A stretch of 28,867 bases of DNA from a virus (taxonomy: Duplodnaviria > Heunggongvirae > Uroviricota > Caudoviricetes), in IMG/VR virus record IMGVR_UViG_2660238462_000003. One strand, given 5' to 3'. Both the position numbers and the translations under genes were made by a program. The notes below the pieces were generated by a model, which worked only from the letters and a program-made list of their open reading frames with translations, was not told where the DNA came from and made no database searches. Shown here piece by piece: positions 5,842 through 16,827 of this stretch (positions are counted from its first letter, which is position 1; each line of letters begins with the position of its first letter).

Positions 5842-6882
5842 ATGGTTGATTTATATTCGCCTACTCAGCTTGTACAGGTGGTTAATGCTGTAGATGTACA
5901 AAAACAACTAAATGCGTTGTTTACCAGTTTGTTTTTTACTCGCTCGGTAATGTTTGAATCGCGCGATATTATTCTTGATACAATCGACGATCCAAATATC
6001 CCAATTGCAGCGTTTTGTTCTCCTATGGTGGGTAGTAAAGTTTCACGTGACGAAGGGTACGAATCAAAAACAATTCGTCCAGGCTATATGAAGCCGAAAA
6101 GCAGCATTGATCCAAATAAGTTAGCTGTGCGCCCTGCTGGTGTATCACCTGAGCAATACAATGCTTTTGGGGCACGTAATATTAAAGTTAAACAGGCGAT
6201 TGTAAATCAGGCTAAAGCTATTCGTGCACGTATTGAATGGCTTGCTGTTCAGGCAATCACAACGGGGAAAAATATCATTGAGGGCGATGGTATTGAACGT
6301 TATGAGCTGGACTGGAATATAAAACCACAAAATATCATCACTCAGTCTGGCGGTACTGAGTGGTCAGGTAAGGATAAAGAAACTTTTGATCCAAATGATG
6401 ATATTGAGAGCTACGCAGAATTTAGTGAGGGCGTCACTAATATCATCATTATGGGTGGTAATGTATGGAAGAAATACCGTTCATTCAGAGCGATAAAAGA
6501 GGCTTTGGATACCCGTCGTGGTTCTAATTCCGAACTGGAAACGGCCCTTAAAGACCTTGGTGATTCGGTGAGTTTTAAAGGGTATATGGGCGATGTTGCG
6601 ATTGTTGTTTACAGCGGGCGTTATACCGACGAGGACGGAACAGAAAAACATTTCCTTGATCCTGATTTGATGGTGCTTGGCAATACGGCTCTTCAGGGGA
6701 TTGTCGCCTATGGCGGTATTCAGGATCCGGAGCTAATCCGAATGGGGCTGACTAAAGCCGAACTTGCACCGAAAAACTATATTGTGCCTGGTGATCCGGC
6801 TATTGAATATGTGCAGACACATTCAGCACCACAGCCAATACCGGCCCGCATCAATCGTTTTGTTACCGTTCGCATTGGCTAA
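5842..6882 (+). CDS. Major capsid protein, lambda gpE family
   Basis: Shared blocks with lambda gpE as recalled: NITQSGGTEWS, DTRRGSNSELETA, GDVAIVVYSG, MVLGNT, PGY.KPK; start chosen at ATG 5842 (SD GAGG 6 nt upstream; ORF opens at 5629); about 347 aa vs 341 for gpE. Confidence 0.85.
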   Translation: MVDLYSPTQLVQVVNAVDVQKQLNALFTSLFFTRSVMFESRDIILDTIDDPNIPIAAFCSPMVGSKVSRDEGYESKTIRPGYMKPKSSIDPNKLAVRPAGVSPEQYNAFGARNIKVKQAIVNQAKAIRARIEWLAVQAITTGKNIIEGDGIERYELDWNIKPQNIITQSGGTEWSGKDKETFDPNDDIESYAEFSEGVTNIIIMGGNVWKKYRSFRAIKEALDTRRGSNSELETALKDLGDSVSFKGYMGDVAIVVYSGRYTDEDGTEKHFLDPDLMVLGNTALQGIVAYGGIQDPELIRMGLTKAELAPKNYIVPGDPAIEYVQTHSAPQPIPARINRFVTVRIG

Positions 6883-6891
6883 GGGGGAGCA

Positions 6892-7233
6892 ATGGCTACT
6901 CATTACACTGAACTCATGGCTGGCACTGAAGCACTGGTGACTACGCTGGGGATATTTTCAGCTAATAAAGGGGTAATTCCTGCATTTACGCCACTGATGC
7001 AGGAAGATGCAACAGGTGCACTGGTGGTATGGGATGGTTCGAGCGTAGGTAAAGCGGTTTATGTTTCCGCTGTACAAATCGACACAGCGAAAAAAACACA
7101 GGCACAGGTTTATAAGACAGGTGTTTTAAATGTTGATGCTCTGAACTGGCCTGAGTCTGTAAAAGAACTGTCGGCAAAGGTTGCCGCGTTTGTTGGCTCA
7201 GGTATTTCTGTTCAGCCGCTGGCTCGTGTGTAA
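6892..7233 (+). CDS. Head decoration protein, lambda gpD family
   Basis: 113 aa; PAFTPLMQEDATGALVVWDGSSVGKAV and WPE...AFVGSGISV align with lambda gpD; strong SD AAGGGGGAG. Confidence 0.7.
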   Translation: MATHYTELMAGTEALVTTLGIFSANKGVIPAFTPLMQEDATGALVVWDGSSVGKAVYVSAVQIDTAKKTQAQVYKTGVLNVDALNWPESVKELSAKVAAFVGSGISVQPLARV

Positions 7234-9707: not shown

Positions 9708-9717
9708 NNNNNNNNNN
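9708..9717. other. Assembly/scaffold gap (10 N)
   Basis: Run of 10 n characters. Confidence 0.95.
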
Positions 9718-9921
9718 CGCAGCTTTACGCTTGTCTTCTCTTATTTTGAAGTACAGATTCGTCAGGTAAGTCAGAAAGCCCAGAACCAGACTTCCCAGCA
9801 CACCAATAGCAGCCCACTGTGATGGACTGACCTGATCAAGCCACTGTAAAAACCAGTAGCCAGCACTGCCTGCGGAGGTGCCGTAGGCAATGCCCGTTGT
9901 TAACTTGTCCATGGATTTCAT
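9718..9921 (-). CDS. Holin, phage 21 S21 (pinholin)-like; C-terminus truncated by gap
   Basis: [63 protein letters not shown]... matches S21/EssD-type holin; strong SD GGAGGTGAGG. Confidence 0.8.
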
Positions 9922-10294
9922 AGCCTCACCTCCGCAAATAACGGATGGTGTACACGGTTCGGAACGAAGAGGGAAAGGTATAGAAGTTACATTAGCGTAA
10001 GGCCTGAACATCTATTCAAAAAGAAAAACGCCAGCGATTATTCTGGCGTAGCTGAAAGCATCATAAAATTATCAAATACGAAAATTACAAAATCATTAAA
10101 ACGCATCACGTTACATCATGTGTTTTTCTAAAAAAATCTTGATGAATATTTGTGGGGAGGAACACCAAAATATCTTCTGAAAACACTTACAAAATATGAC
10201 GTATTTTCATAACCGCATATCTCAGCAACTTTCCCAACAGAATATAAATTGTAGCTTAATAACCTTTCCGCCATCACCATTCGCTCTTCAAGAA

Positions 10295-10680
10295 TTAATT
10301 TTCGTGGATCTCAACTGAGCGTGAGAAGCAGATTGTTTTACGAGCCAACCGCTTAATACGGGTGCGTAGCGTCAGATTATTACGCTCAATGCGTTGGGTG
10401 AATATTTTGCCGGTCAGATGCTTATTCTTCGGCACCTCCCGGCCATAGCTGCCCCAGTCATCGCTGGTCAGCATGCCGATATTGAAGGGTGTAAGCAGTG
10501 CCAGTAGCTCCCGGCACGTTTGATCGGTTCGGGGACCAAAAGTGTAGGCCAGTACACCGCCTGTTTTGGTGTTGTACGCGTACCAGAGTCAGTGTTGCCG
10601 GGCTTTACTGCCAACGTAGCTCCATTGCTCATCAAGCTCGCAGATAAGCGCCACATCAGCATGGGCAACAGGCGAAGAAG
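10295..10680 (-). pseudogene. insB: IS1 insB-like, internal TGA stop and short C-terminus
   Basis: Minus-strand translation LICELDEQWSYVGSKARQH*LWYAYN...MLTSDDWGSYGREVPK...RIERNNLTLRTRIKRLARKTICFSRSVEIHEN resembles InsB; stop falls where IS1 InsB has Trp. Confidence 0.6.
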
Positions 10681-10953
10681 TTATTCGCTTTGGCGCGAGT
10701 TTTTTAAAGTCCGGATGACGGTGTTAATACCAATTTTCAGTGTCCTGGCGGTATCGCGAACCCCGGCACCATTAAAGGCCATTTCAGTTATCCGCTCTTT
10801 CATACCCGGCTTACGTGCTTGATAAGTATAAGTGAGCTGAAACACACGGTGGCAGTCACGGCAGCGAAATCTGTCACGGCCTTTAGGGTTCTGACCATGG
10901 CGGTAAACCTGAGCTGACTGACAACGGGGACAATGAATATTAACTCTGGCCAT
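10681..10953 (-). CDS. insA: IS1 InsA-like zinc-finger/HTH protein
   Basis: 90 aa; CPRCQS...CRDCHRVFQ zinc finger and HTH GINTVIRTLKN typical of IS1 InsA (divergent from K-12 IS1). Confidence 0.8.
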   Translation of the reverse strand: MARVNIHCPRCQSAQVYRHGQNPKGRDRFRCRDCHRVFQLTYTYQARKPGMKERITEMAFNGAGVRDTARTLKIGINTVIRTLKNSRQSE

Positions 10954-11432
10954 GAGATAACCTCAAAAGCCCGTATTATACATCAGACTCAACTAATTAG
11001 AGGCATCACCATAGAACATATGTATGGCATATTATCCACCTGATATCATTGGGGTTACACCAGGTAAGTATAGGTGGGTAATCAATATTCGCCAGTTCAA
11101 CAATAAGGAAAATCTCATTGCATCACAACTATAAAAGCATGTGTTTAACTCGCAAAAAATCATTAAACTAATCTGTTATATTATAATAGCTGCGTGCAAT
11201 AATAATATTATATGCTCTTAATATTCGCTTGAAATATCTTTATATAAAAACAGATTGAATAAAATATTTTGGGGCTGGTATATTTACCAACATTAAATTG
11301 CATCTCAATATTTTCTTCAGCGTGAACAGGATTTTTATACAAACTGACACTATGGGTATCATAGTGTAGTTTTTACGATTGTAAATATCCTGCATGCAGG
11401 AACTCATCACTTTCAGATGATATCGCATACAG

Positions 11433-12392
11433 TTAATTCACCATCAGTCTTAAAGCCAGTTCTTCCGGATAGGGATCGAAGTAATTCTGTGTAAGCAAGT
11501 AATCATTAGGATACTCACCCAGATAATGCTTCAGCAGAGTCAACGGCGCAAGAAGAGGCAATGTGCCAGAACGATAGTTAAGTATAACCTCGCTCAACTC
11601 TTTACGCTGGCGTGTACTTAAGTAGTTACTAAAATACCCCTGTATATGCATCAGCACATTCGTGTGATTTTTACGTGATGCAGGTTTTATGAGAATCGCC
11701 ATCAGCTTATCACGATACACCTCAAAGAATGATTCAAGGTCCGCCCACTCGTGTATTGCAGCCACAAATGGTCCCATATCTTTATAGCCTGCCTGACTAT
11801 GCGCCAACAACTGAAGCTTATAACGACTATGAAAAGCTAATAACTCTCTTCTTGATAATTTCTCCTTGTAAAGGTGATTGAGCTCATGCAAAGCAAAAAC
11901 TCTTTCAACAAAATTCTCACGAAGCACTGGATCATGTAATCGCCCATCCTCTTCAACCGGTAGCCAAGAAAACTTTTCCATCAAAGTGCTCGTAAATAGT
12001 CCCACTCCATCTTTACGACCTCGATTACCATTTTCATCATAGACACGCACGCGCTCCATGCCACAGCTGGGAGATTTAGCACAAACCACAAACCCCGATA
12101 CATCCTTTAATTTGTCCATATAAGAACGACTAAACTCTGTCATTCTCTCTGTCACATCCTCATTCTGGTCGTGGCTGAAACACATCCGTATATTTCCTTG
12201 CGTCGAGCGCACAAGACGTAGAGCAGGACGCGGAACTGGCAGCCCTATAGCCATTTCCGGACATACTGGTCTGAATGTTACCCATTCCACTAATTTGTCC
12301 ATTAAAAAGTCAGCTCTTTTGTGACCACCATCAAAACGAACAGCAGAACCGGCCAAACAACCGCTGATTCCAATCACAGGTTTTTTTATCAT
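11433..12392 (-). CDS. DUF523/DUF1722 (YbgA-like) family protein
   Basis: 319 aa; strong SD GGGGGAGGA; N-terminal Cys-containing DUF523-like region plus C-terminal DUF1722-like region (from memory of family features). Confidence 0.55.
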   Translation of the reverse strand: MIKKPVIGISGCLAGSAVRFDGGHKRADFLMDKLVEWVTFRPVCPEMAIGLPVPRPALRLVRSTQGNIRMCFSHDQNEDVTERMTEFSRSYMDKLKDVSGFVVCAKSPSCGMERVRVYDENGNRGRKDGVGLFTSTLMEKFSWLPVEEDGRLHDPVLRENFVERVFALHELNHLYKEKLSRRELLAFHSRYKLQLLAHSQAGYKDMGPFVAAIHEWADLESFFEVYRDKLMAILIKPASRKNHTNVLMHIQGYFSNYLSTRQRKELSEVILNYRSGTLPLLAPLTLLKHYLGEYPNDYLLTQNYFDPYPEELALRLMVN

Positions 12393-12584
12393 ATCCTCCC
12401 CCTTGACTAATTCATTAACAGATAAACTGTGTAGTGCACGGAATAAATTGCCTTTCTGGCGTCATCACTGACAATTTTTCTGTTATGGACTATTCCTAAT
12501 ATAGTATAAAAGTTCTTTAAGTGATTGGTCGTAATCATCTATCTTTCATACTTACCCTCAACTATCAAAAGTACAGGATTTATT

Positions 12585-13109
12585 ATGAAGTTATGGCCTG
12601 TGTTGACTGGCATTGCACTCTCTTTCACTCTTATAGCATGTAAGGCCCCGACACCACCTAAAGGTGTGCAGCCGATTACAAATTTTGACGCCAACCGCTA
12701 TCTCGGAAAATGGTATGAAATAGCTCGCCTCGAGAACCGGTTCGAACGTGGTCTGGAACAGGTCAGCGCTACTTATGGAAAACGGAACGACGGAGGGATT
12801 CGTGTACTTAACCGTGGATACGATCCAACGAAAAATAAATGGAGCGAGAGCGAAGGTAAAGCATACTTTACTGGAGATACTAAAACTGCAGCGTTGAAGG
12901 TTTCGTTTTTTGGCCCCTTCTATGGTGGCTATAATGTAATCAAACTGGATGATGAGTATAAGTATGCTCTTGTCAGTGGTCCGAACAGAGAATACCTATG
13001 GATTCTGGCAAGGACCCCAACTATTCCAGATAAAGTAAAAGCAGACTATGTGCGAACCGCTCAAAAGCTGGGATTCAATGTCAATGAATTATTATGGGTT
13101 AAACAATAA
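12585..13109 (+). CDS. blc: Outer membrane lipoprotein Blc (bacterial lipocalin)
   Basis: Lipobox LIAC; NFDANRYLGKWYEIARLENRFERGLE...KVSFFGPFYGGYNVI...YLWILARTPTI closely matches E. coli Blc; SD AGGA 6 nt upstream. Confidence 0.85.
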   Translation: MKLWPVLTGIALSFTLIACKAPTPPKGVQPITNFDANRYLGKWYEIARLENRFERGLEQVSATYGKRNDGGIRVLNRGYDPTKNKWSESEGKAYFTGDTKTAALKVSFFGPFYGGYNVIKLDDEYKYALVSGPNREYLWILARTPTIPDKVKADYVRTAQKLGFNVNELLWVKQ

Positions 13110-13136
13110 AATCCCTACCCGAAATGATACTTATTA

Positions 13137-13165
13137 GAAAAAAAACCAGCCTTTGGGGAGGCTGG
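13137..13165 (-). terminator. Rho-independent terminator downstream of Q (tR'-like)
   Basis: On minus strand ccagcctccccaaaggctgg hairpin followed by T8. Confidence 0.5.
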
Positions 13166-13265
13166 CTAAATCAGGAAACAAGCTGTTATATGATAATAAC
13201 TACGTTGCGATTCCAACATTTAAAATGTTAGACTAATGACAATCAGACAGCAACTTTTCTTTTAA

Positions 13266-13643
13266 TTATTTCGAACAATCAGCATCCATCTCCAATCGGA
13301 GATCCAACACCATCAGCATGCCCTCCACTACGCCCTCAGCTTTCTGGAGCATCCTGCCAACCCAACAATCAGATCGCCCATGCTTACGTGCAAGCGCCAT
13401 AAAAGTCATGCCGCCGACATAATAGTCCACCAATAAATCATGCAAATCGCTGTTGTTTTTTTTCAGGCGAGCCATACATCCACAAATGATCATCGCGTCA
13501 TCGTCACAGCATTGCGGGCGAGATTTGACTTTTGAAGAAATTAACCCCTTAAAACCGGCAGCAATGGACGACCAGGTCACATCTTCATGATTATTAGCCG
13601 CCCACGCTCCCCAACGCTCAAGAACCATCTGAATATCACGCAT
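13266..13643 (-). CDS. quuD: Late-gene antiterminator Q (DLP12 QuuD-like)
   Basis: [31 protein letters not shown]...[16 protein letters not shown] matches QuuD/Q82-family; ORF opens at 13658 but start chosen at 13643. Confidence 0.8.
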
Positions 13644-13728
13644 CAACTTACTCCACAAAAATCAGACCAGAACGCCAATTACAAGCAAAAATCAACAAAA
13701 CAGTATTAGTTGATTGTTATCTCTGACT

Positions 13729-15408: not shown

Positions 15409-16827
15409 ATGAAATATTTCTCAACTGGTTTTTATGTTTCAAACTCCACATCTCTAGCTGAGATCTTTAATGAATGTTTTTCTTGGGTAAACGACTCACC
15501 ACATACAACTTTTATTCCAGCACAATTAGTATGTGATTATAAAAGCGAGGAGTACTTCATAGAGTCTAAAAATGAAAGAATTGATATAATAACTTATAAA
15601 AACAAAGATACTAGTTTAGGCTGTTTTAGGTATTCGAAAATATCTGAGCCACACAAATGGGTAACAGATATTTCAATTAATAAAAATCTCAAAACTGATA
15701 CCATGTGGATTCAGGTGGAATCTAGCGTTGTAAGCCAAGATGCAGCTTATCTAGCCCCGCAACCTAAGAAACCATTAGTTGTTATGAGATTGATTGATAA
15801 ATTTTCTGGTGGTCTTGATGATATTTTCAAGGTGTCAGTCGAACCTCATTCCTTAGATGATACTGATGAACATTTAAATATAGCAGCTAAAGTTATAAAT
15901 GGTGAAACTGACAACAGACTACCAATAATATACGTTAGCTCCAAGTATTTTTTTAATGAACATGCTCACAATATCATCCCAGAACGCCTTGCAAGAAAGG
16001 TATGCGGATTAGCACATGTATTAATTGAGCCTAGCAATAGACTATTTTCTATTAAGCTAAAAAATGAGACAAATGCTAAAAATGCCTATGCTGGTGCTGT
16101 TGGTATCTATTGGCCACGGGGTCAAAATATCAGTTTTTATCGCCGTGGTGAGAAAACCGCAAAAGAATTTGAAGATGAGTTATTTGATGATGTTGTAAGA
16201 GCTACGACTACAATGGCTCCTGTCTCAGATAGTGGATGGAGTGAGATACAAACCAGAAAAACGAAAGACTCTATTAACTCACTCAAAGAAAGAGGAGAAT
16301 ACACACGCGAACTGATGGCGCTTTACGAAGCCGATAATGTTGCGAAAGATGACCAAATAGAAGATCTTAAGCATAAGATCTCCTCTTTAGAGCACAGAGT
16401 ACGCACTCTTCAATCACAAGCTTCAGCCCAAGGAAGCATTGTGCTTAATGCTGGTGAAGAGACTGATTTTTTTGATGGAGAAATCAAAAATATAATTATT
16501 GACGCACTAAAAACTGCCATAAAAAATAAAAATGAATTTGGTAGAAGCTACCATATCTTATCATCCCTAATTGCCAATAATGAATACAATAAAGAAACCG
16601 AGAGTCGCCGCCAATTACTTAAAAGGACTTTAACAGGTTACAGAAGCATGGATAGCGCAACACAAAGAAATTTAAAGGACTTAGGTTTCAGTGCGTCAAG
16701 CGATGGAAAACACTGGAAGTTAACATATAATGAAGACCCTCGATATTCCTATATTTTACCTAAAACAGGAAGTGACCACAGAGGTTCTTTAAATGCTATC
16801 TCGGATATAGCAAACATTATTTTCTAA
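15409..16827 (+). CDS. Hypothetical 472-aa protein, AT-rich moron between nin region and ren
   Basis: Long ORF with SD AAGGAAA; much lower GC than flanking genes; central coiled-coil-like segment (EDLKHKISSLEHRVRTLQSQ); no recognised motif. Confidence 0.55.
   Translation: MKYFSTGFYVSNSTSLAEIFNECFSWVNDSPHTTFIPAQLVCDYKSEEYFIESKNERIDIITYKNKDTSLGCFRYSKISEPHKWVTDISINKNLKTDTMWIQVESSVVSQDAAYLAPQPKKPLVVMRLIDKFSGGLDDIFKVSVEPHSLDDTDEHLNIAAKVINGETDNRLPIIYVSSKYFFNEHAHNIIPERLARKVCGLAHVLIEPSNRLFSIKLKNETNAKNAYAGAVGIYWPRGQNISFYRRGEKTAKEFEDELFDDVVRATTTMAPVSDSGWSEIQTRKTKDSINSLKERGEYTRELMALYEADNVAKDDQIEDLKHKISSLEHRVRTLQSQASAQGSIVLNAGEETDFFDGEIKNIIIDALKTAIKNKNEFGRSYHILSSLIANNEYNKETESRRQLLKRTLTGYRSMDSATQRNLKDLGFSASSDGKHWKLTYNEDPRYSYILPKTGSDHRGSLNAISDIANIIF

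Follow-up and report, generated by a model that had tools for sequence, protein, structure and literature searches.

The 28,867-nucleotide (nt) stretch of caudoviricete DNA analysed here (IMG/VR record IMGVR_UViG_2660238462_000003; hereafter the window) includes a large part of a lambda-like prophage. Its interval 9922-13265, which runs exactly from the stop codon of the antiterminator gene Q to the start codon of an S21-type holin gene, is best read as the variable moron slot of this prophage. The slot is occupied by a common three-gene module (i.e. blc-like lipocalin, rudS and araC-like regulator genes) of which the third gene has been wrecked by an IS1-family insertion sequence (IS), whilst the coupling of late transcription to lysis would be kept. 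A probability of about 0.8 was assigned to this reading. Every component has been described previously and the finding is, to that extent, already known; the anatomy, homologies and prevalence of the segment and the viability of phages with an intact module were shown. An initial annotation of this DNA had described ~3.3 kb of cargo between tR' and the holin, and all the elements it listed were found in place. Its observations were accurate and incomplete, as the AraC-like gene, the identity of the 'YbgA-like' product and the scaffold gap in the holin gene had been missed. The features of the segment are as follows (amino acids, aa; base pairs, bp).

13266..13658, minus strand: antiterminator Q gene, 130 aa (PF06530, E=1e-50)
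13136..13167, minus strand: tR'-like intrinsic terminator, hairpin and T8 at 13167-13144 (terminator scan)
12585-13109, plus strand: gene for a Blc-like outer-membrane lipocalin lipoprotein, 174 aa (Pfam Lipocalin_2, E=1e-43)
11433-12392, minus strand: rudS, 319 aa, intact (PF04463, E=4e-40, residues 7-149; PF08349, E=6e-40, residues 192-309)
11011..11030, minus strand: first 20 nt (ATGCCATACATATGTTCTAT) of a PatE-like AraC-family regulator gene (aligned to 6351-7082 of the strain WP4-S18 locus, L002)
10302-11010, minus strand: IS1-family relic, 709 of 766 bp, with one inverted repeat at 10988-11010
10681-10953, minus strand: insA, intact, with both InsA domains (PF03811 and PF12759)
10705-10699, minus strand: A6C -1 frameshift motif (read from the sequence)
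10591-10589, minus strand: TGA in the insB frame, ...SKARQH*LWYAY (translation)
10128..10301, minus strand: 3' remnant of the AraC-like gene, 174 nt, last ~57 codons and stop (PF12833, E=2e-9; aligns to L002 6351-6542)
10018..10049, minus strand: intrinsic terminator-like hairpin and T-run (10049-10028) after the AraC-like gene (terminator scan)
9718..9921, minus strand: S21/EssD-type class II holin gene with an MKSM dual start (PF04971, E=3e-35)
9708-9717, no strand: run of 10 N, a scaffold join between contigs of opposite gene orientation

The cargo module and its relatives

The late operon lies on the minus strand and reads, below Q, tR'-like hairpin, blc (on the plus strand), rudS, IS1 relic, AraC remnant, terminator and holin gene. 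An uninterrupted order was found in strain WP4-S18, where Q is followed by the lipocalin gene (+), a YbgA-family gene, a gene for a 243-aa helix-turn-helix protein and the holin gene. Both rudS and the araC-like gene are co-oriented with late transcription and blc is antisense to it. When the segment was compared with a DLP12-like prophage carrying quuD, a porin gene and essD, homology stopped at 13284, in the 3' end of Q, and was regained at 9932, 11 nt short of the holin ATG, indicating that the whole interval is a swappable cassette. The equivalent position in DLP12 of Escherichia coli K-12 holds quuD, nmpC::IS5B and essD, so that the comparison with the nmpC position suggested by the initial annotation identified the same slot. 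Similarity to other Q-bearing phages was likewise seen to stop ~18 nt short of the Q stop codon (window 13284-13120), implying that the final codons of Q, like the entire stretch from Q to the terminator, travel with the cargo and not with Q. As expected of a moron, the cargo lies between Q with its terminator and the holin, is replaceable, is offset in GC content and has terminator-like sites at both ends. The GC content was 39% for the cargo, 32% for the araC-like gene and 31% for the 402-bp region below rudS, as against 51% for the nin-Q region.

Prevalence was assessed in 5426 complete E. coli genomes with a 3.9-kb query (9760-13700), a match being a genome in which at least 80% of the query was covered in one place. 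The module segment (i.e. Q, blc, rudS, araC-like gene and holin) was present in 781 genomes on this measure; the region just beyond IS1, by itself, matched 918. The same three-gene cargo, in the same order and orientation, was found in the plaque-forming phages IdasGreatGrand (PP925829) and 1H12 (NC_049947, Jouyvirus) and in ten Lambda_* records similar to 1H12. Through their accession series and the Lambda_* names, these phages can be linked to a study of temperate coliphages cultivated from infant E. coli strains and viromes, although 1H12 has 0 occurrences in its main text (Mathieu et al. 2020; PMC6969025). The cargo is dispensable, there being viable phages with it (1H12 and IdasGreatGrand) and without it (most Q-related phages). 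The module was also detected, at 90-100% protein identity, on two contigs (JARKOR010000151 and JARKOR010000135; loci L059 and L064) of a metagenome-assembled genome labelled 'Candidatus Nanosynbacter sp.' (Saccharibacteria); these contigs are almost certainly mis-binned E. coli prophage DNA.

The second cargo gene had been annotated as a 'YbgA-like' gene with DUF523 and DUF1722 domains. The gene and both domains are present, and the identity of the product has to be amended: comparison of sequences identifies it as a predicted RudS, a [4Fe-4S] tRNA 4-thiouridine (s4U) desulfidase. The protein is identical to phage 1H12 gp66 at 295 of 319 positions without a gap (92%), and gp66 is RudS_vir, a variant that has been synthesised and tested (Jamontas et al. 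2024; PMC11417400). All RudS variants tested in that study reduced the s4U content of tRNA in E. coli, RudS_vir being weaker than others, and RudS overexpression is reported to have lessened the growth delay induced by UVA (PMC11417400). Seven residues (Cys12, Cys44, Glu46, Arg55, Ser107, Ser109 and Cys110) were invariant among six sequences, chromosomal homologs included. The three cysteines are those given as [4Fe-4S] ligands for RudS_vir (PMC11417400), and Glu46, Arg55, Ser107 and Ser109 match the catalytic residues of RudS_KT by position offset. E. coli is said to be without RudS or TudS homologs (PMC11417400). Despite this, rudS is carried by at least 781 of the 5426 complete E. coli genomes through the prophage module, under the RefSeq name 'YbgA family protein', and in this species it seems confined to the cargo of the Q-holin prophage slot. 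Annotations as 'YbgA family' at this locus should be changed to RudS.

The lipocalin scored 316 bits against NCBIfam NF007786 ('outer membrane lipoprotein Blc'; cut-off 267). Its signal peptide, with lipobox LIAC, was read by eye from the translation and ends at the lipobox cysteine (MKLWPVLTGIALSFTLIAC|K). A divergent intergenic region of 192 bp separates rudS from blc, which would have its own promoter region on the opposite strand. Identity was 60% to a K-12 Blc sequence entered by hand and ~80% to the Blc paralog that adjoins rudS in Enterobacter, Citrobacter and Leclercia. On this comparison, derivation of the cargo gene from the chromosomal blc of E. coli itself was rejected. As a moron, blc occurs in >50% of cultivated infant-gut Lambdaviruses (PMC6969025).

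Chromosomal rudS loci were scanned in one genome per species. Homologs with 66-77% identity to the window RudS were found on the chromosomes of Citrobacter, Enterobacter, Kluyvera, Leclercia, Lelliottia, Klebsiella oxytoca, Pectobacterium and Dickeya. At the majority of the loci in Enterobacter and Leclercia, the Blc paralog (~80% to that of the window) is divergently upstream of rudS, and a MerR/MlrA-like regulator gene and a transthyretin-like gene separate the two. In Citrobacter sedlakii and Citrobacter sp. JGM124, as in the phage, blc and rudS are immediate neighbours in divergent orientation. The 'chromosomal-type cargo' of the initial annotation is thus upheld for blc-rudS, with the source lying in another enterobacterial genus and not in the blc of E. 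coli. No AraC-like gene, Q or holin was found near the 60-odd chromosomal rudS loci, and arrival of the AraC-like gene together with blc-rudS from a chromosome was rejected on that ground. The blc-rudS pair would have been picked up from a locus on the chromosome of other Enterobacteriaceae, and the AT-rich araC-like gene would be a separate, phage-associated addition.

The IS1-family relic and the loss of the AraC-like gene

Stubs of the AraC-like gene (20 and 174 nt) flank the IS1-family relic on its two sides, indicating that the element sits inside the third cargo gene and not merely between genes. The intact 243-aa protein exhibited 54% identity over 235 aa, the level of a paralog, to ECs_0287 of Sp1 in strain Sakai, which we take to be PatE (Z0321, OI-8) from its island (OI-8/Sp1) and size. 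Profile matches of the YdeO/GadX type fell below the cut-off. As judged by homology, the protein would belong with the prophage-encoded regulators of the PatE/Psr type. Loss of this regulator is the only certain functional consequence of the insertion, as blc and rudS stay intact; the source strain is without this PatE-like regulator yet retains blc and rudS.

The element is a divergent relative of IS1 and is now an immobile relic. Its proteins were 43-45% identical to those of IS1A (tblastn, E=1e-27 to 1e-42), with no significant nucleotide match, whereas only 9 mismatches (~98.7% identity over 709 bp) separate it from a 766-bp IS1-family element of phage Rac-SA53 (KU052037), for which the insAB product is noted as 'Mobile element protein IsEc30'. 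The initial annotation had described the IS1 as defective, with a TGA at a conserved tryptophan codon of insB and one end missing. These lesions were confirmed: the TGA site is TGG (Trp) in the copies of E. coli MY203L1 and phage Rac-SA53, and 57 bp on the insB side, inverted repeat included, are deleted relative to full 766-bp copies with imperfect terminal repeats. A second terminal inverted repeat was sought across the whole window and none was found, that at 10988-11010 being the only one. No target-site duplication of 8-9 bp was found; the full copy in MY203L1 is flanked by GCAAGTGAT and ATAGAACAT.

In MY203L1, a complete IS1 stands in place of 312 bp of the AraC-like gene (L002 6751-7062). 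This loss and the lack of a target duplication point to insertion followed by an IS1-adjacent deletion. Relative to MY203L1, the window has a further deletion of 265 bp, comprising 57 bp of IS1 and 208 bp of the AraC-like gene, with a 3-nt microhomology at the junction. An IS1-family element would thus have entered the araC-like gene in a small lineage, an adjacent deletion would then have removed 312 bp of that gene and, on the path to the window only, a microhomology deletion of 265 bp would have removed the insB-side end of IS1 with a further 208 bp of the gene; the change from TGG to TGA would have killed insB. The IS1 copies of the window and MY203L1 differ at 8 of 709 positions. Different nonsense codons were observed in the insB of the two copies, both at TGG (Trp) codons (i.e. 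TGA in the window and TAG in MY203L1), which argues that the transposase decayed independently in each and that the insertion is old and still decaying.

The junction of IS1 with the cargo was present in only 9 of the complete E. coli genomes, and the 265-bp deletion junction of the window was contiguous in 0 of the 5426; four full-coverage matches to the latter were split ~355 bp apart and represent the undeleted form. That the deletion junction is private to the window, and that the source is a scaffolded draft with a 10-N gap, would be in keeping with an assembly artefact, in which a collapsed or mis-joined repeat created the truncated IS1/AraC junction. Such an origin is hardly credible, as the sequence runs unbroken across the junction and shows a 3-nt microhomology of the kind left by real deletions, the 9 complete genomes have the identical second IS1 junction and 5' stub of the AraC-like gene, and the IS1 copy of the window has private substitutions.

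Other IS elements were observed in the Q-holin slot of other strains: an IS1A at the 3' end of Q in FCI56 (L071 4853-5550) and an IS3-family element inside blc of Br_167_kylling (L072 4399-5627). These insertions are independent, indicating that the slot tolerates repeated IS hits.

Late transcription, lysis and the scaffold gap

The Q gene of the window was 87% identical at the nt level to the quuD-type Q of a DLP12-like prophage in strain JNE23-011, with the alignment ending at 13284, and 74-77% identical to the Q genes of Shiga toxin (Stx) phages. The hairpin ~100 nt past the Q stop consists of a 9-bp GC-rich stem followed by T8 and is kept in phage 1H12 and strain WP4, relatives with the same cargo. 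Folding of the RNA of 13125-13230 (minus strand) gave -27.5 kcal/mol (z=-4.4). These properties fit tR', and the hairpin at 13167-13144 was taken as such. The second terminator lies ~100 nt upstream of the holin ATG; its hairpin sequence is invariant in MY203L1 and WP4, and the surrounding segment is 87-97% identical in phages 1H12 and IdasGreatGrand. Two candidates for pR' picked by eye (TTGCTG-17-TAACAT near 13251-13223; and TATCAT at 13195-13190, aligned with a TAATAT past quuD in the DLP12-like prophage of JNE23-011) were not confirmed.

The initial annotation had started from the premise that Q, pR' and tR' lead straight into the lysis genes, and had proposed that the cargo might uncouple Q from lysis. 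The premise does not hold, as this slot is known as a classic site for morons. The evidence contradicts the proposal as far as the cargo is concerned, and for the IS1 such uncoupling is improbable. The cultivated 1H12 group and IdasGreatGrand have the same cargo, as do 781 of the 5426 genomes, and the presence in cultivated phages of this cargo and of two late-strand terminators between Q and the holin indicates that the cargo itself does not uncouple Q. The IS1 relic is the only remaining possible polar block. No terminator-like site was detected on the late (minus) strand inside the relic by a terminator scan, so that any polarity would have to be Rho-dependent. RNA polymerase modified by Q resists both intrinsic and Rho-dependent terminators, and does so over many kb. 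On induction, the Q-modified polymerase would start at pR', pass tR', the antisense blc and rudS, and then cross the IS1 relic and the second terminator (10049-10028) to reach the holin gene. As Stx and DLP12-type phages read through likewise, late transcription and lysis would stay coupled.

Several points weigh against this reading. The pR' promoter was not located, a consensus scan giving weak sites only (13294-13265), and lysis competence of the prophage cannot be judged from a contig ending in the holin. From the insB stop to the terminator at 10049-10028, ~480 nt are crossed by no open reading frame (ORF) longer than the 50-codon AraC remnant, a stretch offering a possible loading site for Rho on transcripts without the Q modification. 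In the phage collection, the IS1-bearing allele was found in no cultivated phage; the sole IS1 match was to the same type of IS at a different site, in Rac-SA53, and as no paper establishing the viability of Rac-SA53 was found, this phage was not used as evidence.

Two alternatives for the fate of lysis have to be set against retained coupling. IS1 insertions are classically polar, and a polar relic, with its premature insB stop (TGA 10591-10589) and untranslated AraC stub, would stop late transcripts before the holin and lead to replication without lysis. The ~480-nt stretch left by the TGA and the deletion, and the lack of the allele in cultivated phage records, agree with such a block. It is nevertheless very unlikely, given the resistance of Q-modified polymerase to terminators of both kinds, the lack of a late-strand hairpin in the IS1 and the passage of late transcription through two cargo terminators in viable relatives. 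Nine complete genomes (e.g. MY203L1), in which the lysis genes further down are intact, also retain the IS1 allele at ~1% divergence. In K-12, an IS5 persists in the equivalent slot of DLP12, the lysis operon of which is reported to be expressed, under the control of Q, RpoE and Hha (PMC7918800); no direct data on IS polarity were found in the literature on DLP12, nmpC and essD. The other alternative is that the prophage is defective for causes unrelated to the cargo, such as a satellite-disrupted head gene or lesions past the gap, which would make the Q-holin segment irrelevant. In its favour, the portal fragment at the end of the left contig forms the right junction of a satellite insertion, as in JNE23-011, and the holin contig stops at the gap. 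This too is unlikely, as the contigs are opposite in gene orientation across the 10-N join and need not share one prophage, and as the early-region ORFs (int, RecT, cI, O, P, RusA and Q) are full-length with strong family matches.

The gap truncates the holin gene ~3 codons short of its stop (the annotated holins of relatives have 71 aa). A lambda-family portal fragment on the plus strand lies to the left of the gap and the holin on the minus strand to its right. Since the gap lies inside the holin, the endolysin and spanin genes (R/Rz) and all structural genes of the prophage fall outside the window; the gap probably reflects repeated lysis-gene sequence common to several prophages. The left contig (1 to ~9470) is satellite-like, with genes for BRO-N, Icd-like, primase, SSB, major capsid, head decoration and small terminase proteins, and borders on its right on the 3' portion of a lambda-type portal gene. 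A DLP12-like prophage of E. coli JNE23-011 has its portal gene interrupted by the same satellite (L006 12701-23610), which there includes its integrase, and the left-contig element is accordingly annotated as a putative satellite integrated within a helper-type head gene.

To the right of Q, the window encodes YbcO, RusA, P, O, a YdaT-like protein, an S24-type cI repressor, RecT and a lambda-type integrase, followed by ybhC; the lambda-like prophage is integrated at attB-lambda beside ybhC and its early region is apparently intact. No tRNA genes or known RNA families, such as might be compared with those of Stx phages, were found in a search of the whole window. Between ybcN and P, the nin region contains an antisense ORF of 472 aa (15409-16827, plus strand; 33-38% GC). 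It had no Pfam match and a weak PADLOC match to the candidate system HEC-07 (E=1e-9); roughly the same stretch holds DUF4041 or ybcK genes in other genomes, and the ORF may be a defence-type moron.

Significance and comparison with known systems

The segment has little import for phage biology, as the Q-S slot is a textbook passenger site, the blc moron and phage RudS have both been published, and an IS relic within a passenger gene is routine genome decay. A modest question is raised by the presence of an eraser of tRNA thiouridine in the late operon, namely what benefit it brings to a temperate phage. Since rudS and the late operon point the same way, read-through driven by Q on UV/SOS induction could strip s4U, the near-UV photosensor, from tRNA. 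If RudS were more than a neutral passenger, and blc-rudS a captured light-stress module serving phage and lysogen, removal of s4U would avert tRNA cross-linking and stringent-response shut-down during late protein synthesis, and Blc would shield the envelope. We regard this idea as speculative and doubtful.

The nearest relatives of the cargo are those of the 1H12 group and IdasGreatGrand, which share the S21-type holin, the gene order and 90-97% nt identity across the cargo. They differ in having an intact 243-aa AraC-like gene and no IS1, where the window retains stubs of 20 and 174 nt. The IS1-family element of Rac-SA53 has the same organisation of InsA, A6C motif and InsB; it is a full 766-bp element with an 8-bp duplication, whereas the copy in the window lacks one inverted repeat and the target duplication and has a TGA in insB.

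Window RudS shares with the RudS family the two-domain architecture, the three cluster-binding cysteines and the positions of the catalytic Glu, Ser and Arg residues, and the tested viral RudS is its direct ortholog. Chromosomal rudS genes are found in light-responsive or MerR-controlled operons (PMC11417400), whereas window rudS forms part of a phage late operon, without that regulator. PatE, PsrA and PsrB of enterohaemorrhagic E. coli are prophage-borne, AT-rich in sequence, ~245 aa in length and equipped with a C-terminal AraC helix-turn-helix domain (PMC10877973). The intact homolog of the window gene resembles these regulators in its length of 243 aa and its occurrence in prophages and phages, with the paralog-level identity to ECs_0287 given above; the gene in the window differs in having been destroyed.

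Stx phages (933W, BP-4795, phi24B and VT1-Sakai) resemble the window in their Q genes. A non-essential cargo of several kb separates Q/pR'/tR' from S in these phages, and expression of stx from this slot is the textbook example of Q-dependent read-through. Their cargo differs, consisting of tRNAs and stxAB co-oriented with late transcription, with no blc, rudS or araC. The DLP12 arrangement (quuD, nmpC::IS5B, essD, rrrD and rzpD) shares with the window an EssD-type holin, a related Q, an antisense cargo gene and an IS in the cargo; it differs in its porin cargo, in the IS5 being complete and inside the antisense gene, and in its chromosomal site.

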